Of a DNA stretch of 64,000 bases, positions 6,001 through 45,000 are shown piece by piece. The DNA is from an uncultured Gemmatimonadales bacterium (GTDB taxonomy: Bacteria; Gemmatimonadota; Gemmatimonadetes; Longimicrobiales; Gaopeijiaceae). Numbering within the stretch: the stretch's first letter is position 1; every line of letters begins with the position of its first letter. Position numbers: made by a program. The DNA is taken from positions 10,703 to 74,702 of the forward strand of contig CAJWPN010000001.1 in the NCBI GenBank assembly GCA_913045345.1, given 5' to 3'.

Positions 6001-9000
6001 GAAGTCCTAATCCAAGCATGGGTGAGAACTCACCGCCCGCATACCAGATGCGGTCAGGGTCATCGTAATAAAGAATCTTAGGGACTATCCCCCCAATTTT
6101 CTTGTCCGAATTTTCTGCTACATCCACTAGTTTGCTTACAGCACAGGGGTCCACGACGATGTCATTATTCAAGATCAGCAGGTATTCGGATTTGCCCCTG
6201 AGGGTTCGCTCAATACCTCGGTTGTTTCCGCCGGTGTATCCTAAGTTCTGGCCTGTCTGCAGGAATTCAATTTCTGGGAATGACGCCCTGAGGCCCTCGA
6301 AAGAGTCATCAGGAGACCCGTTGTCCACCAGTAGGAGCTTGAGGGTACTGTAATCTGAGTTCAGAAGAGACTGGAGGCATGCAGCTGTCGCTTCCTCGTT
6401 GCACCAATTCAAGACGATGGCTGTGACTATTGGAGGAGTCACGAGAGTTACTCTGGAGTTTCTTGTCTGTTTTGGGGATCCGGATAGAACCGCGCTCCCA
6501 CTTTATCAAGAAGGTCGAGCAAGAATTGACCAATCCATAAAAAAGGACGTAAAGGAGGTAAGTGAAGTTGGGAAGTTCGTACTGTAACGTTCTCTAAGGC
6601 AAGGTGGCTAAGTTTATTGTCAGGAGTAGGACAGGCATATTAGTCCTTACAATCACCCTACCGAAAAAATTTCCTGAAGGTCAGTTTCTTGAAGTACAGT
6701 ATTTGCAAGAATCTTTTACTCTGATGATGCCCTGATGAAAGATCTGAAAGTCGCCCTGGTGCATGAATGGCTCATCTCATGGGGCGGATCCGAGAGTGTT
6801 CTGCAATCTCTTTCTCGGCTTTTCCCGGATGCGCCCATCTTCACATCTATCTATGCTCCTGACTATCGTGTGCGCCGGGTTTTTGCTAAGTGCGATATTC
6901 AACCTGGAGTGCTGCAGTTGGTTCCGGGTGTGCAGCGTCTGTATAGAGGTCTGTTGCCACTAATGCCTTGGGCATTCGAGCGTATGAATCTCAAAGATTT
7001 TGACTTAGTGATTTCCAGCAGCCACGCTTTTGCAAAAGCTGTCAGTGTAGCCCCTGATGCATACCATCTTTGTTACTGTCACACTCCTCCTCGGTACCTA
7101 TGGGACTTGTATGACAGCTACAATCCCGGTCTTCAAGGAGTACTGGGCGGCCCATTACTGAAGTACCTCAAGCGCAAAGATTTTCAGGTAGCCAAGAATG
7201 TCAGTGGGTTTATTGCAAATTCTGCTTATGTGGCTGACCGCATTGCCCGGTCTTACGGTCGTAATGCGACAGTCGTCTACCCTCCGGTGGATGTAGATCA
7301 ATTTGATGCTGTGGATGTTCAGGGGAGTTACTACTTAGCTGGTGGCCGAATGGTTAAGTATAAACGGCTGGACAAAGCCATTGAGGCTGCTAACCGGGGA
7401 AAGTTTCAACTGATCGTGTTCGGTGATGGTCCAGAGAGAGCTCGATTGACAAGATTAGCTGGCCCAACGGTACGGTTTACAGGTGGAGTTACACAGCCTC
7501 AGCTTGCCGAGTTGATCCTCCACAGCCGAGCTTTTCTGTTCCCAGGAGTTGAGGACTTCGGCATTCTGCCTGTGGAGGTTCAGGCCGGTGGTCGCCCGGT
7601 AATCGCCTTAGCCCAGGGTGGGGCTCTCGAGACCGTGAAAGCTGGGGTTACTGGTCTGCTCTATGAAGATGATTCAGTCGATGGCCTGCTAGATGCGGTA
7701 CACAGGTTTGAGCCCAATGCCTTCAACCCAATGGAGTGTCGCTTGAATGCACTCCGTTTCAGCCGTGATCGCTTTGAAAAAGAGATGGCTGAGATCATTC
7801 AGCAAGTGTCAGGGCAAACCTAGTTATTTGTGCCCGTACTCACCGACCTCATTGTTATTGAGTAAAAGAGTAGACAGGACCGCTTAAGCTGAGGTACGTT
7901 TCCTTGCTAATCTAACGGGTATCCAGGTTCTAGCCTGACTATCCCACCCATCCGAAACCAGTCTTATACCTTTCAGCTTGTGAAGCGAGTCTTTGATTTG
8001 GTCGTGGCTAGTTTGCTACTCATCTTAACGCTACCGATCCTGTCGGTAGCGGTTACGGTCGTGTGGCTTAGCTCTTCGGGTCCCGTGTTCTTCGGCCACA
8101 CAAGATGCGGACGCAAGGGCGTTCCATTTAAATGCCTAAAGTTCCGTACTATGGTGGTAGGTGCTCAGGATTGGCTAGTGCAAGATCCCGAGTTAAGAGA
8201 GCAGTACAGAGAAAATGGTTTTAAACTTCGGGTTGAGCAGGATCCGAGGATTACCAAGGTGGGGCGGCCTATGCGTCGTGCCTACCTGGACGAACTCCCC
8301 CAACTGATCAATGTACTTAGGGGTGATATGTCACTGGTGGGACCACGTCCAATTATCGAAGAAGAGCTTGAGTGGTATGGGGACTCTAAAGACGAACTCT
8401 TAAGTGTACGCCCGGGCATTTTCGGGCCCTGGACAGCACAGGGGAAAAGCAGAGTTGATTATCCAAAGCGTGTCGAGATAGAACTTTCATATATCCGTGA
8501 CAAGAACCCCATAAAGGACGGCATAATTTTGGCTAGAAATATACCTGCTGTTCTCTCAGGTCAGCCGGAGAACTAAAGCTGACTTGATTGTGAGTTGGGC
8601 TGCCAACTGCGCTACTAGTATCCACGAACACTATCGCCGGTAAGTCGATGGTCACGCACTAGATCCACCGATTCCTCCAAATTCTGGAACCCCTCATGAA
8701 AGACATATCCAGTAATGACCTGACAAATAATTTCCCTCTTGCTGCTCGAAGTGCTGAGAAAGAACGGTCAGTCGTCCGTATTCTTGGTACTGAAATTGGG
8801 GGTGACAGCGTGGTTGTCATTGCAGGTCCCTGCGCTGTGGAAAATCGTGACCAACTCCTCGATATTGCTGAGAATGTGAAATCACGAGGTGCGCTTATCA
8901 TAAGAGGAGGAGCGTATAAGCCACTTACATTTCCCTATAGAAGTGAGTCATTCTTTGAACTTGGTGAGGAAGGTCTTCGGTATTTGGCAGATGCCCGTGA

Positions 9001-42000: not shown

Positions 42001-45000
42001 TGACACTGGCAGTGTCGTTGCTCTATTTCGTGCTCTTCCTCGGATACGTACACCTTAAGTACTCGCACATAGTTTTGAGTGACCCTTTCCCGGCAGCTTT
42101 TTTCTATGTAGTCCCCGCCATGTTTGTCGTGCTCTTGCTGCTGAGCGTCAAGCTGAGCACGGAATACCGGGTGAGTCTTTCGCTTCTCATCGTCTCGACA
42201 GCGATTTGCATCTTCCTAGCTGAGGGGTACCTCACTCTGTTCCCGCGTCCCACGCCCCTCGAGCTCCGCACCATGAGAAGGGTTTCGGCGGCCGCTGGGC
42301 TCGGTATCGACTTCGACACACGGTCCAGGCTCCGGGTTGTCGATGAACTCACGGCCGCCGGCCAAGACGTCACCCTTGCTTTTCTGCCTCTTGCCTACCT
42401 GTCGGATACCTTTGATTCGCCGGATGCTTCCGGTCGCCTTTTCCCCTTAGCTGGAAGGGCAAACACCACCTCGGTGCTCTGCAACGAGGCCGGGAATTAC
42501 CCGATCTACGACAGTGATGAACGAGGATTCAATAATCCGAGAGGCACCTGGAGTGAAGCAAAGCTCGACTTCCTCCTGGTAGGTGACTCCTATACCCAGG
42601 GAATCTGTGTTGCATCGGAAAAGAACATTGCGGGAAGACTGAGAGAGGTGCACCCGAGAACGTTGAATCTTGGAATGTCCAACAACGGACCGCTCATGAT
42701 GCTAGCGACGTTGAAGGAGTACGCGCAGTCGTTTGAGCCGAACGTCGTTCTCTGGATCTTCTTCGGAGGCAACGACTTGCTCGACCTTGCCGAAGAGCGA
42801 CGGACGCCGCTGCTGAACTACCTCGAGGAAGGGTTTTCCCAGGGTCTCTATGACAAGCAGCAAGCGATTGATGACATGGTCGAGCGCTACATGGAAGAAG
42901 CCATAGCGACAGAGAGAACCACTGCGCGAAAATTTGTGCATGAACCCCGTCCATCGTTCTCACTCTGGGAGTCGTTGAAACTGGCTCGCCTGCGCTCATT
43001 CGCGCGGCTTACCTACCGACGGAATGAGGCCGCAGACTACGCTGAACTTCAACTATTTGCGAGAGTCCTTGGCGAAGCTGATCGTTTCGTGAACTTATGG
43101 GGGGGACAACTCTACTTCGTCTCCTTACCCGAATATCTTGAGTTCGCACGTGGCCCGACGTCTTTCCAGTCACACTCCGAAGTGATGTCCATAGTCGCGG
43201 ACCTCGGTGTCCCCCTAATCGACCTACGCGAGACTTTCCTGGAGCACGCAGACCCCCTTAGCCTGTTTCCGTTGAGACTGCGCGCCCACTACAACGATTC
43301 CGGATACGCGCTGGTCGCCGAAACAATTCTGGACCGAATCGACGGATGACGAGCTTATTGCCTTCGACCAATGTGTTTCGGCACCCGAAATGGATCGGGT
43401 AGTATATGGACTGTACCCAGTGCGCTTAGCACTTAGTTTTCGAGTGTATTATTGACTCCCATAGAAACCCCCTAGCTTTTTAGCCCATATAGGGTAGAGC
43501 CTCAAACTTCCAACCACTTTCTATACTTGAGCCCACACCAACAAGCTTCCAGATCCCATGACCTCTAGTGAGATCCCACTCGTATCTGTGATTGTGCGGA
43601 CCAAGAATGAGGAAAAATGGATTACGGCATGCCTAGGCGCTGTATTCCGCCAAACCTATCCAGATTTCGAGGTCATCGTTGTAGACAACGGGAGTACAGA
43701 CCGGACATTGGAACGGGTGGCCCAATTCGATGTTCAGGTTGTGAACATTGACCAATTCTTGCCTGGGAGGGCTTTGAATCTTGGTATTCGGGAGTCAAAG
43801 GGTGAAGTGATTGTCTGTTTGTCTGGACACTGTGTGCCAGTGGACACGAATTGGCTAAAGCACCTAGTCGAGAACCTTGAGGATGGCATTGCAGGTGTGT
43901 ATGGACGTCAGGAACCATTGAGCTTCTCGTCTGATGGAGACAAGCGTGACTTGCTTACCGTCTTCGGTCTCGATCGAAAAATCCATGTTAATGATTACTT
44001 CTTCCACAATGCGAATAGCGCGATACCAAGATCTGTTTGGGAAGAGGTTCCATTCGATGAGGATGTGACAAACATTGAAGATCGGGTATGGGCCAAAGAG
44101 GTGTTGGGGCTCGGATACAAGATCATTTATGAGCCCCTAGCCAGTGTCTATCACTACCATGGGATCAATCATAATCACGATGAAGAGCGCGCCAGGAATA
44201 TCGTCCGCATCCTGGAATCAATGAATGAATCGAGCGCGAGAACTATCGGTGGGGATATTGACGCTAGGGATTTAAGAATCATGGCGATCGTCCCGCTGCG
44301 TGGGGCCTCCCGCCAGTGTGGTGGGCGACAGCTCATTGAGTACACACTAGAGAGAGCGTTTGAGTCCAAGTACATCACGGATGTCCTGGTCTCGACTGAC
44401 AACCCGGAGACGGCTGAACTTGCTGAGTCATTGGGAGCTTGGGCGCCGTTCATAAGGCCTGCACAGCTTTCAGAGGACTATGTGAGCGTCAGTGAGGTTC
44501 TTAGGTACTCCATTGAGATGGTGGAGGGCTTGGGAGTACTTCCTGATCTTGTTGTTTTGATGCAGGAAACATATCCATTTCGTCCTCGGGGCTGTATCGA
44601 CTCAATGGTTGAGAAGCTGGTACGGGAGGGATTAGATAGCCTTGTTCCAGTGAGAGCAGAGCATCGTCTTGCTTGGTTTAACCATGGAGAGGAGGCGCGC
44701 CAATTAGCGGAAGGTGCTATGCCGCGTAGATACAAGGACTCATCAGTGTATGTAGGACTCCTTGGACTCGGTTGTGTAACCCACCCCGCGTTTCTAAGAG
44801 AGGGTGAGATTCTAGGTCCTAATGTTGGAATCCAAGAGGTAGACGATGCTCTGGCTTCAGTGGAAGCACGAGGAGCCTCGGGGGTTGAGTTTGTTGACCA
44901 GGTTATTGCTCGCTGGTGGGCTAAGGATGTAAGTGACACAAGTGTCAGCTGACCACTCAAAGCAGGATGCGCCGACTCAGGGACCTAGTGCTCCTGCTGT

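Follow-up and report, generated by a model that had tools for sequence, protein, structure and literature searches.

How many kinds of ulosonic acid can a single bacterial surface-polysaccharide locus make, and which enzyme starts each of them? We asked this question of a 64,000-nucleotide stretch of DNA (the window; positions 10,703 to 74,702 of contig CAJWPN010000001.1, forward strand, assembly GCA_913045345.1) from an uncultured Gemmatimonadales bacterium. Ulosonic acids such as Kdo, sialic, legionaminic, and pseudaminic acid shape how cells are recognized by phages, grazers, and immune systems. An earlier reading made from the sequence alone (the sequence-only reading) had counted three synthases that condense phosphoenolpyruvate (PEP) and four cytidylyltransferase (CT) domains in this locus, and had proposed that it builds either several distinct ulosonic acids or differently modified forms of fewer. 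One of the three synthases resembles 3-deoxy-D-arabino-heptulosonate 7-phosphate (DAHP) synthase (DAHPS). DAHPS, 3-deoxy-D-manno-octulosonate 8-phosphate (KDO8P) synthase (KDO8PS), and NeuB have been grouped as alpha-carboxyketose synthases (PMC12531865), and the only form in which ulosonic acids have been observed to date is one activated with cytidine monophosphate (CMP) (bioRxiv 10.64898/2026.04.20.719630). Our main new result is that the DAHPS-like enzyme belongs to a monophyletic, widespread, and misannotated DAHPS variant that is tied to a pair of NeuA-like CTs and a family 2 glycosyltransferase (GT2). The linkage is well supported, and we infer the chemistry, that is, all substrates, products, and the order of steps, from sequence and gene neighborhood.

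Three synthases and four cytidylyltransferase domains in one window

Pfam and NCBIfam models recovered two NeuB-type synthases, one DAHPS-like gene, one NeuC, and four CTP_transf_3 domains, all where the sequence-only reading had placed them. All four CT domains exceed the gathering score of PF02348 (CTP_transf_3), 22.6 bits.

8696-9559, plus strand: variant type I-beta DAHP-synthase-like enzyme (KPLTFPY subfamily); Pfam DAHP_synth_1, 210.5 bits
10671-11726, plus strand: NeuB1; Pfam NeuB, 215.8 bits, and SAF, 33.6
11723-12880, plus strand: NeuC-type hydrolyzing UDP-GlcNAc 2-epimerase; TIGR03568, 380.9 against a cut-off of 235.9, which it passes; Epimerase_2, 245.7 bits
12880-13605, plus strand: CT1, NeuA-type CT coupled to NeuB1-NeuC; PF02348, 71.3 bits; PDB 9ftb, 114.6, and 6ifd, 112.9 bits
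19190-20245 (start 19151 or 19190), plus strand: NeuB2; Pfam NeuB, 283.3 bits, and SAF, 38.6
34046-34771, plus strand: CT2, NeuA-type with a full canonical DxD; PF02348, 87.6 bits; PDB 9ftb, 106.3, and 6ifd, 105.8 bits
38962-39690, plus strand: CT3, of a module-specific clade; PF02348, 87.8 bits; PDB 9ftb, 84.5, and 6ifd, 85 bits
about 44254-44952 (residues 253-358 of the open reading frame (ORF) 43558-44952), plus strand: CT4; CTP_transf_3, 32.4 bits; PDB 9ftb, 36, and 6ifd, 32.9 bits

A six-frame scan of the whole window, with a custom CT profile and phmmer, returned no further copy or fragment of a CT, NeuB, NeuC, or DAHPS gene, and its single NeuC match agrees with the earlier count of one. 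Alignment also bore out the motif IPARGGS.../VSTDD.EIA...GA.VPF.RP that had been described as common to the four CTs, with the fourth copy degenerate in its first part. The ORFs of the synthases, NeuC, and the CT domains are all intact. An identical locus is present in two NCBI metagenome-assembled genomes (MAGs; GCA_002348665.1 and GCA_003527825.1) and in Tara and JGI marine contigs, and positions 6000-25000 are evenly and contiguously covered by contigs of four independent marine metagenomes, one of which, 69.8 kb long, spans that interval with one difference. Given this contiguity and identity, the locus is not an assembly artefact. A search for RNA evidence turned up a single metatranscriptome, from a shared sample, that contained 1% of the sequence words. 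Short joints that appeared as candidate deletions in the metagenome comparison were rejected, since their sides of only 20 letters allow chance matches.

A variant of type I-beta DAHP synthase

The DAHPS-like enzyme passes the models of type I-beta DAHP synthases (TIGR01361, 321.9 against 267.75; NF006421, 369.5 against 335) and falls well below the KdsA equivalogs (105.7, 104.9, and 73.1 bits against cut-offs of 242-457). Among solved structures it scores 273.6 bits to the DAHPS 1vs1 and about 76 to KDO8PS. The KPR(T/S)SP loop of type I-beta DAHPS is nevertheless absent from the window gene, which has KPLTFPY instead. Compared with the solved I-beta enzymes, GGAFKPRTSPY--SFQG becomes GGAYKPLTFPYRSESFFELG, KRGxGNT becomes KRHFGCS, ERGI-RTFE becomes ERGIAAPHTHQP, and PSHPAGRR becomes PSHSTFRR. 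The resulting signature consists of R to L77, S to F79, G to H156, and R to H190, together with two inserts of three residues.

We found the same signature in all 16 homologs that adjoin the GT2-CT fusion gene (described below) elsewhere, in close database homologs, and in representatives of several 50%-identity clusters. We compared 33 variant with 30 canonical I-beta sequences column by column. The loop arginine, invariant in the canonical set, occurs in none of the variants (28 leucine, 3 cysteine, 2 alanine); the loop serine, at 93% in the canonical set, is phenylalanine in all 33; and the second arginine (position 190), also at 93%, is histidine in 31. Three conserved histidines are gained (KRH, PHTH). 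The putative PEP-binding residues and putative histidine and aspartate metal ligands are conserved at 95% or more in variants and canonical enzymes alike. The variants are monophyletic with respect to canonical I-beta enzymes in 89 of 100 neighbor-joining bootstraps. At least 120 database clusters match at 66% identity or more, and those that carry a name are all automatically named 3-deoxy-7-phosphoheptulonate synthase. The label DAHPS-like thus holds insofar as the enzyme passes DAHPS models; by its sequence it is neither KdsA nor an ordinary DAHPS, and is assigned to a distinct variant subfamily with a CT partner of its own.

Within this subfamily, the metal-binding cysteine of AGPC is replaced by asparagine (AGPN) in the SAR324, SAR11, and SAR86 copies (L007, L010, L011, L013, L017, and L019-L021; L numbers denote the loci that we compared). 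A cysteine/asparagine switch of this kind separates metal-dependent from metal-independent KDO8P synthases.

The variant synthase is linked to cytidylyltransferases across phyla

We scanned GTDB, one genome per species, with the fusion protein as query and mapped the window proteins onto the 39 loci obtained. A recurring block emerged, referred to here as the module, that holds, in its usual order, a CT3-type CT, the GT2-CT4 fusion, an oxidoreductase of the GFO/IDH/MocA family (GFO), the variant DAHPS, and an AroE-like gene. The variant DAHPS lies within 10 kb in 16 of these loci. Module loci occur in the following groups.

SAR324, L007 (no CT3-type gene in range); Desulfatibacillum, L008; Thermodesulfobacteriota, L012
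Pelagibacteraceae, L010, L011, L013, L015; SAR86, L017, L019-L021
Nitrospirae, L022 and L024 (GT2 and two CTs as separate genes); a Methanosarcinales archaeon, L023; Saccharibacteria and Parcubacteria, L025 and L026

Searches from the DAHPS side gave the same association. In L046 an epimerase, a nucleotide-diphosphate (NDP)-sugar dehydrogenase, the GFO, DAHPS, and AroE-like genes are followed by NeuB and then by GT2 and a CT, and in L047 (a metagenome contig whose DAHPS protein is labeled by NCBI as from an Acidobacteria MAG) GFO, DAHPS, AroE-like, NeuB, GT2, and CT form one run. The search patterns of the metagenome scan are shared with canonical DAHPS and returned mostly canonical loci, which we therefore used as a control set and not as a census of variants. 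Neither a CT nor this GT2 occurs in any of 70 canonical-DAHPS loci, whereas five of the nine loci that were strictly classified as variant have a CT (Fisher p = 5.6e-6); with three more loci, which the strict regular expression had passed over, the count is 8 of 12. Of the variant loci, four lack a CT: L048, a close relative, and short contigs (2.6-5.6 kb). Two distant variants (45-47% identity) also adjoin a CT, one of them with a GT2-CT fusion and two radical-SAM genes.

Many module loci, mapped from either side, have no NeuB within 10 kb; the variant DAHPS is therefore the only nearby PEP-condensing enzyme that could feed the CT there. The record NZ_CP159811.1, of a Pelagibacter strain, is an example of the full module with no NeuB nearby. 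In the loci mapped, we found glycan genes around the variant and no AroB or AroD/Q genes. A literature search for a connection between DAHPS-like enzymes and cytidylyltransferases or glycans found none, which is weak evidence since most subscription journals lay outside the search. Taken together, our data indicate that the linkage of variant DAHPS and CT is well supported.

In a marine single-cell genome (GCA_902608235.1, L049), a distant variant DAHPS with KPATFPY still has a CT and a GT2-CT fusion for company, but in the places of GFO and AroE-like its flanking genes encode a radical SAM/SPASM protein and a radical SAM protein that binds B12; this suggests a different tailoring of the same core.

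The CT domains are old paralogs and one of them is part of a fusion

CT2, CT3, and CT4 are 36, 32, and 26% identical to CT1. The copies are thus not the near-identical recent duplicates that the sequence-only reading had named as a case against itself; they are old paralogs of the NeuA branch and not of the KdsB branch. In the PDB search, all four lie nearer to NeuA/PseF-type structures than to KdsB; KdsB structures score 23-43 bits with CT1-CT3, compared with 85-115 for NeuA-type structures, and the best KdsB-model scores (51-67 bits) lie far below the NCBIfam cut-offs of 155-281. The PseF equivalog TIGR03584 is the best-matching model, yet the four copies score 156.6, 148.3, 127.1, and 58.3 bits, below its cut-off of 205.7. 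Comparison with characterized enzymes, as had been proposed for assigning substrates, gave no copy a known specificity. The structures used were 9ftb, which with 9ftc is labeled in the fold search as Aeromonas caviae CMP-Pse5Ac7Ac synthetase (PseF); the NeuA structures 6ifd, 1eyr, and 1qwj, with Vibrio cholerae and Neisseria meningitidis NeuA among the enzymes compared; the CMP-Kdn synthetase 9t4z; and KdsB. The PseF, NeuA, and CMP-Kdn synthetase structures score nearly equally for any one copy, and we rejected them as a guide to specificity.

The key residues of NeuA-type enzymes are Arg12, Lys21, Gln104, Lys142 (from the other subunit), Asp209, and Asp211, in an active site formed by both subunits of the dimer (PMC2901514). 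At the corresponding positions the four copies read as follows.

CT1: CTP loop ARGGSKGVPRKN; Gln at the position of Gln104; NVD at DxD, NxD being conserved and typical in its clade
CT2: CTP loop ARGGSRRIPRKN; Arg at the position of Gln104; DID at DxD
CT3: CTP loop ARGGSKGLRRKN, intact; Thr at the position of Gln104; DIH at DxD, conserved in its clade
CT4: PLRGASR followed by an eight-residue deletion (GGSKGxxxKN; the Lys21 region is gone); Gln at the position of Gln104; EAR at DxD

The CTP loop with the equivalents of Arg12 and Lys21 (ARGGSKGxxxKN) is therefore present in CT1, CT2, and CT3. The conservation within clades of NxD in CT1 and of DIH in CT3 suggests that these sites may be functional in place of DxD. 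In a neighbor-joining tree, the clades of CT3 and CT4 are sisters, both module-specific, and stand apart from CT1, CT2, and the solved NeuA and PseF enzymes; the CT3 clade has the conserved motifs KN(F/Y)W, REDTGLACASR, and DIH. A CT3-type CT is present in every CT-bearing variant-DAHPS locus mapped from the DAHPS side, except the short contig L056. We propose that CT3 would be the activating enzyme for the product of the DAHPS-like synthase.

CT4 itself lies about where it had been reported, and is not a gene of its own: it forms the C-terminal half of a fusion protein.

43558-44952, plus strand: GT2-CT4 fusion; GT-A domain at about 43558-44200 (Glycos_transf_2, PF00535, 90.7 bits) and NeuA-fold domain at about 44254-44952 (CTP_transf_3, 32.4 bits)

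The AlphaFold2 (AF2) model of the fusion has a mean predicted local distance difference test (pLDDT) score of 83.9, and its C-terminal domain superposes on NeuA-type structures with template modeling (TM) scores of 0.73-0.78, normalized to the targets. The GT2 domain of this model matches the GT2 domains of heparosan and chondroitin synthases and PcManGT. The DxD/DxH motif of GT2 enzymes was not found in the fusion, which has a conserved LS(G/A)HC with the histidine alone kept, a position judged by eye in an alignment without a GT2 reference; as a matter of speculation, this motif would fit a donor without a metal-bound diphosphate. Conservation of the CT4 clade spans different phyla and includes many invariant residues, and the loss of the Arg12/Lys21-type loop and of the Asp209/Asp211-type metal site extends through the whole clade. 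Since the CTP-binding loop and the metal-binding aspartates are missing, CT4 is a conserved domain that is probably not a canonical cytidylyltransferase.

These data recast the mismatch of three synthases and four CTs. It is not a surplus of activating enzymes: CT3 and CT4 belong to sister clades that travel as a pair, and CT4 has neither the CTP loop nor the DxD site; probably only three of the four domains are canonical enzymes, judging from their motifs. The idea of several distinct ulosonic acids is supported: the four deeply diverged CT paralogs belong to different clades, each with its own conserved gene partners, which fits several chemically distinct products better than redundancy, and we consider such products likely. 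As for the density that had been called unusual, it is high and at the top of the range but not unique. Two to three CT domains within 14-20 kb are common in fusion loci (L008, L015, L055, L133), several of them with two PEP-condensing enzymes, and four CTs with three synthases mark the upper end of this range without being different in kind. Part of the density arises because CT3 and CT4 form a fixed pair.

Homologs of the fusion fall into at least 2273 clusters. Its nearest relative in the GTDB representative set comes from a SAR324 MAG (54% identity); none was found in the phage collection, and the plasmid collection held only distant relatives with GT2 alone. A fusion 52% identical is encoded in the cultured Desulfatibacillum aliphaticivorans (GCA_000429905.1, AUCT01000001.1; L133), whose locus, with no variant DAHPS within 10 kb, packs two more CT genes, sulfotransferases, a B12 radical-SAM enzyme, and an ABC exporter into 14 kb together with the fusion; the organism could serve as a host for experiments on the fusion. 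A trio of GT2(-CT), CT, and a phosphoglycerate-dehydrogenase-like 2-hydroxyacid dehydrogenase recurs beside NeuB-type synthases in L016, L018, L029, and L133. A distant version of the trio lies on plasmid pAge77 of the cultured roseobacter Thalassovita gelatinovora (L131), where it adjoins KpsF-KdsB-KdsA and three 'MptE-like' genes, which we believe to be of the Maf type.

Partner genes of the module

The window encodes the following further genes whose homologs accompany the module or its variant synthase elsewhere.

9556-10674, plus strand: AroE-like dehydrogenase; Pfam Shikimate_dh_N, 76.8 bits
21478-23130, plus strand: Capsule_synth-like protein (KpsC/KpsS-type); PF05159, 35.5 bits
34774-36486, plus strand: carbamoyltransferase after CT2; Pfam Carbam_trans_C, 227.2 bits
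38064-38960, plus strand: methyltransferase MT3, a frequent module member; Pfam Methyltransf_23, 61.2 bits
59609-60682, minus strand: GFO/IDH/MocA oxidoreductase (Pfam), ortholog of the module GFO, 50 kb from the DAHPS-like gene

An AroE-like gene is present in eight of the nine strictly classified variant-DAHPS loci, mostly adjacent to the synthase. The window copy keeps the catalytic lysine (VTVPYK) and aspartate (GYNTDG) and the NADP motif GAGGAARA, and its best AroE scores in NCBIfam (175.9 and 174.3 bits against equivalog cut-offs of 252 and 200.2) fall below all cut-offs. It is also about 100 residues longer than a usual AroE, with the extra 70-100 or so residues placed inside the NADP-binding domain; L046-L048 share this insertion (368-376 residues), and the SAR11 copies (about 277 residues) lack it.

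The window GFO scores 401-488 bits against the GFO that adjoins variant DAHPS in L007, L008, L012, and L054. Its nearest PDB entries are 3q2k (208 bits) and 3q2i (204 bits), which we take to be WlbA, a UDP-GlcNAcA 3-dehydrogenase. Homologs of MT3 adjoin CT3 or variant DAHPS in L052, L054, L022, L024, and L026, and homologs of the carbamoyltransferase adjoin module genes in L007 and L055. The Capsule_synth-like gene has its counterpart directly 3' of the AroE-like gene in L048 (859 bits), and its product is a candidate ulosonic-acid transferase.

Two proposed NeuB-type routes beside the module

The remaining genes that bear on ulosonic acids form a nonulosonic acid (NulO) cassette and a group of genes around CT2.

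10671-21141, plus strand: NulO cassette of NeuB1, NeuC, CT1, MT1, AsnB-like, 2-hydroxyacid dehydrogenase, a 508-residue protein, NeuB2, and an AP_endonuc_2-like protein
13602-14588, plus strand: methyltransferase MT1, last of the run from DAHPS to CT1; Methyltransf_11, 86.2 bits; its ATG overlaps the CT1 stop codon
14806-16701, plus strand: AsnB-like glutamine amidotransferase; Asn_synthase, 219.8 bits, with GATase_7; TIGR01536, 414.8 bits
16704-17681, plus strand: D-2-hydroxyacid dehydrogenase, phosphoglycerate-dehydrogenase-like; 2-Hacid_dh_C, 173.4 bits; best NCBIfam model for phosphoglycerate dehydrogenase, 233 bits, below cut-off
30243-34049, plus strand: CBS-NDP-sugar dehydrogenase, LegB-like dehydratase/epimerase, and PseC/LegC-like aminotransferase (Pfam), directly 5' of CT2

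From the DAHPS-like gene to MT1, neighboring genes abut or overlap by 1-4 nucleotides (longest-ORF calls with predicted start codons), which suggests a single transcript. The two NeuB enzymes are 33% identical. NeuB1 is nearest to the N. meningitidis Neu5Ac synthase NmNeuB (172 bits, with SpsE at 122 and PseI at 121) and scores below the equivalogs TIGR03569 (297.1 against 399.65) and PseI TIGR03586 (207.8 against 340.25). NeuB2 is nearest to SpsE and PseI (181 and 167.5 bits, with NmNeuB at 145.5); it falls 1.75 bits short of TIGR03569 (397.9 against 399.65) and below TIGR03586 (257.1 against 340.25). Upstream of CT2, the genes at 30243-34049 pass TIGR03026 (321.8 bits) and stay below cut-off for LegB TIGR04180 (140), PseC (298.8), and LegC (289.8). 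The AsnB-like enzyme is possibly an amidino or amide tailoring enzyme. Homologs of the 2-hydroxyacid dehydrogenase adjoin the GT2(-CT) and CT genes in L016, L018, L029, and L133.

The relative L048, whose DAHPS is 83% identical, has the order formyltransferase, DAHPS, AroE-like, Capsule_synth-like, MT2, and then the minus-strand cassette of the window (see below); the block that runs from NeuB1 to AP_endonuc_2, nine genes in all, has no member within 10 kb there. We therefore consider 10671-21141 a nonulosonate cassette of 10.5 kb that was either gained or lost in a locus otherwise common to both.

Wider setting of the locus

The window is a surface-polysaccharide locus throughout, with a GC content of approximately 50%. 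Pfam models at its edges and core identify two Wzi-like, two Wza-like, and one Wzc-like protein and Glf, and the window also encodes an initiating sugar transferase, many GT2 and GT4 genes, an ABC exporter, and a dense set of sugar-tailoring enzymes. The tailoring genes include three methyltransferases, two carbamoyltransferases, the AsnB-like enzyme, a formyltransferase, and an FkbH-type cassette. The Wzi-like, Wza-like, and Wzc-like genes lie at 156-4255 and 56408-59552 and the ABC exporter at 44933-46801, so that more than one export route may be fed.

39721-41940, plus strand: fusion of GFO/IDH/MocA and 2-hydroxyacid dehydrogenase (Pfam), between CT3 and GT2-CT4
44933-46801, plus strand: ABC exporter with fused transmembrane and nucleotide-binding domains; Pfam ABC_tran, 105.4 bits, and ABC_membrane; overlaps the GT2-CT4 gene by 20 nucleotides

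The oxidoreductase fusion gene may have been acquired separately (GC 0.578, against about 0.49-0.50 around it). Homologs of the ABC exporter are found repeatedly near the module in other loci, and an M14 zinc-carboxypeptidase-like gene (46872-48113) follows it directly on the 3' side in the window, an order kept in all identical contigs. A minus-strand cassette at 23853-29043 encodes a polysaccharide deacetylase, a 347-residue protein, a fusion of MaoC dehydratase and short-chain dehydrogenase/reductase (SDR), and an FkbH-domain protein (TIGR01686, 286.7 bits). Its content suggests a glyceryl or hydroxyacyl tailoring unit, and it is conserved in L048. Three large proteins (17671-19197, 21478-23130, and 36618-37961) have at most weak Pfam similarity to GT-B or Capsule_synth families; mutual comparison of the three revealed no paralogy, and each is a candidate ulosonic-acid transferase or sugar-nucleotide hydrolase. 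The second carbamoyltransferase (61062-63262) adjoins a small SxtJ-like protein (26.3 bits).

Three proposed routes and their alternatives

We hypothesized that one very large locus of this marine bacterium holds three separate routes to CMP-activated 3-deoxy-2-ulosonic acids, the third being the DAHPS-like module, and we give this reading a probability of roughly 60%. In the first route, NeuC, NeuB1, and CT1, with MT1, would yield a classical sialic-acid-type sugar. In the second, NeuB2 with the LegB-like and PseC/LegC-like enzymes, CT2, the AsnB-like amidotransferase, and the carbamoyltransferase would yield a diamino, tailored nonulosonic acid. In the third, the variant synthase, which appears to keep the PEP site and most of the metal site, would condense PEP with an aldose that is not erythrose 4-phosphate and may carry no phosphate at all. 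GFO and the AroE-like enzyme could tailor the precursor aldose or a ring position by oxidation followed by reduction, and a DegT aminotransferase, where present, could intercept the keto intermediate. MT3 would then methylate the product, CT3 would make the CMP-sugar, and GT2-CT4 would use it, act on it, or act together with it. CT4 is most likely non-catalytic, and might bind the CMP-sugar or pair with CT3 and so tether the glycosyltransferase; a pairing with CT3 is conceivable because NeuA-type active sites use both subunits of the dimer.

Several points weigh against this reading. The DAHPS side contributes few variant loci (9-12), and the module genes of the window are dispersed rather than contiguous: DAHPS-like and AroE-like lie at 8696-10674 (8.7-10.7 kb), MT3 and CT3 at 38064-39690 and GT2-CT4 at 43558-44952 (38-45 kb), and GFO at 59609-60682 on the minus strand (59.6-60.7 kb). 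NeuB adjoins the DAHPS-like gene in L046, L047, L022, and L024, and both synthases could share one pathway. Erythrose 4-phosphate is an unlikely substrate, given the lost loop arginine and serine, if the arginine and Ser/Thr of KPR(T/S)SP bind the phosphate of the aldose phosphate (erythrose 4-phosphate), as we presume; the literature that we searched did not confirm this role. The gained histidines could form a new phosphate site, that is, the substrate could be phosphorylated after all. The model needs no phosphatase, and none was systematically searched for. The pairing of NeuB2 with CT2 was arrived at by elimination alone. The role of the fusion is the weakest step, as GT2 enzymes are, to our knowledge, not known to take CMP-sugar donors.

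Other explanations share much of this evidence. The CT paralogs might be specialized for forms of one or two nonulosonic acids that differ in N-acylation or O-modification, with the DAHPS-like enzyme only loosely associated. This is in keeping with the wealth of tailoring enzymes in the locus and with the many CMP-NulO derivatives that Campylobacter jejuni makes (bioRxiv 10.64898/2026.04.20.719630). We consider it unlikely, since the CT clades have different conserved partners across phyla, CT3 goes with variant DAHPS and not with NeuB, CT4 has no catalytic motifs, and the statistical linkage of variant DAHPS and CT holds. Similarly unlikely is a shikimate-derived (carbocyclic or aromatic) glycan substituent or precursor made by the DAHPS-like and AroE-like enzymes, with all CTs serving NeuB products only. 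Both genes do come from shikimate-pathway families, the AroE-like enzyme keeps its catalytic lysine and aspartate, and NeuB stands beside the DAHPS/AroE pair in the window, L046, L047, L022, and L024. The pathway to 3-amino-5-hydroxybenzoic acid (AHBA), in which an enzyme of the DAHPS type is joined by a GFO-type oxidoreductase and an AroE-like enzyme, offers a loose analogy. However, no mapped locus contains a dehydroquinate synthase or dehydratase, the aldose-phosphate loop arginine is absent from all variants, and many loci tie variant DAHPS to CT and GT2 with no NeuB within 10 kb, a linkage that none of the 70 canonical-DAHPS loci has. The module also occurs in bacteria of the candidate phyla radiation (CPR), which as a rule have no aromatic biosynthesis.

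It is improbable, in our view, that variant DAHPS and NeuB act in one pathway, for example toward an extended or doubly condensed higher-carbon ulosonic acid, such that the locus makes fewer end products than it has synthases. The two genes lie side by side in L047, L022, L024, and the window, Magnetospirillum has CMP-activated ulosonic acids of more than nine carbons without known genes, and radical SAM genes flank the variant DAHPS in L049; yet most module loci have no NeuB within 10 kb, L048 keeps the DAHPS/AroE pair without the NeuB cassette, and we know of no chemical precedent. Redundant or decaying duplicates, together with an ordinary aromatic DAHPS located here by chance, are already disfavored and to us scarcely credible. 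CT4 did lose its canonical motifs, and PGAP-type models would name the synthase gene 3-deoxy-7-phosphoheptulonate synthase. Decay is nonetheless hard to reconcile with ORFs that are all intact, copies only 26-36% identical, genes that abut or overlap from DAHPS-like to MT1, the linkage statistics of variant DAHPS and CT, and the cross-phylum conservation of the CT4 clade, with its many invariant residues and confidently modeled fold.

Beyond the three routes, we raise more tentatively, at somewhat less than an even chance, that the module is a third origin of ulosonic-acid synthases besides KdsA and NeuB. Here a remodeled I-beta DAHPS would make a new 3-deoxy-2-ulosonic acid, with CT3 as its dedicated activating enzyme, a silent CT4 fused to GT2, and tailoring by GFO and the AroE-like enzyme.

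Comparison with known systems

The closest analog of the module in logic and families is KdsA with KdsB, followed by NeuB with NeuA. The Kdo pathway likewise pairs a PEP-condensing TIM-barrel enzyme of the DAHPS/KDO8PS family (KdsA) with a CTP_transf_3 enzyme (KdsB) to supply a CMP-ulosonic acid for a surface glycan. In contrast to KdsA, the module synthase derives from I-beta DAHPS and lacks the loop arginine that both DAHPS and KDO8PS keep, and its CT belongs to the NeuA branch rather than to that of KdsB. No KdsD-like isomerase or KdsC-like phosphatase was seen in the module, where phosphatases were not systematically searched for; it has GFO, AroE-like, and GT2 genes instead. The nonulosonic acid pathways (NeuC-NeuB-NeuA, Leg, Pse) use the NeuB, NeuC, DegT, and NeuA-type CT families that we assign to the first two routes, CT1-CT3 keep the CTP-binding loop, and CT3 and CT4 share the NeuA fold, whereas the synthase of the third route lies outside the NeuB family. 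Canonical I-beta DAHPS (Pyrococcus furiosus 1zco, Aeropyrum pernix 1vs1, Thermotoga maritima 1rzm) is about 50% identical to the variant and has the same fold, but KPRTSPY is changed to KP(L/C/A)TFPY, and the context of the variant is never aromatic and always glycan-related.

The module GFO, nearest to 3q2k and 3q2i, recalls the WlbA/WbpB-type 3-dehydrogenases of the 2,3-diacetamido-mannuronic acid pathway, and an NDP-sugar dehydrogenase and a DegT aminotransferase are also present in the locus; unlike the WlbA pathway, the module pairs its GFO with a PEP-condensing enzyme. Like bifunctional NeuA, GT2-CT4 joins a domain of NeuA fold to another that belongs to glycan metabolism. Escherichia coli K1 NeuA has an active CT domain with an esterase as partner, whereas the CT-like domain of GT2-CT4 has neither CTP loop nor metal site and its partner is a GT-A glycosyltransferase.

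Implications

New higher-carbon CMP-ulosonic acids have been found by mass spectrometry without assigned genes (bioRxiv 10.64898/2026.04.20.719630). If our reading is true, a DAHPS-derived synthase with its own activating enzyme would be a new branch of ulosonic-acid chemistry, and GT2-CT4 would clearly illustrate how a cytidylyltransferase fold can find new use as a non-catalytic partner. Database entries that bear the name 3-deoxy-7-phosphoheptulonate synthase would be misannotated in their thousands, and such misannotation can skew metabolic reconstructions: CPR or streamlined marine genomes, for instance, can be credited with the entry step of the shikimate pathway. Furthermore, a new sugar would be present on the surfaces of abundant ocean bacteria (SAR11, SAR86, SAR324) as well as CPR, Nitrospirae, Acidobacteria, and a Methanosarcinales archaeon. 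For SAR11, SAR86, and SAR324, in which surface variation is thought to drive phage-host dynamics, the module would give a genetic handle on this surface sugar.

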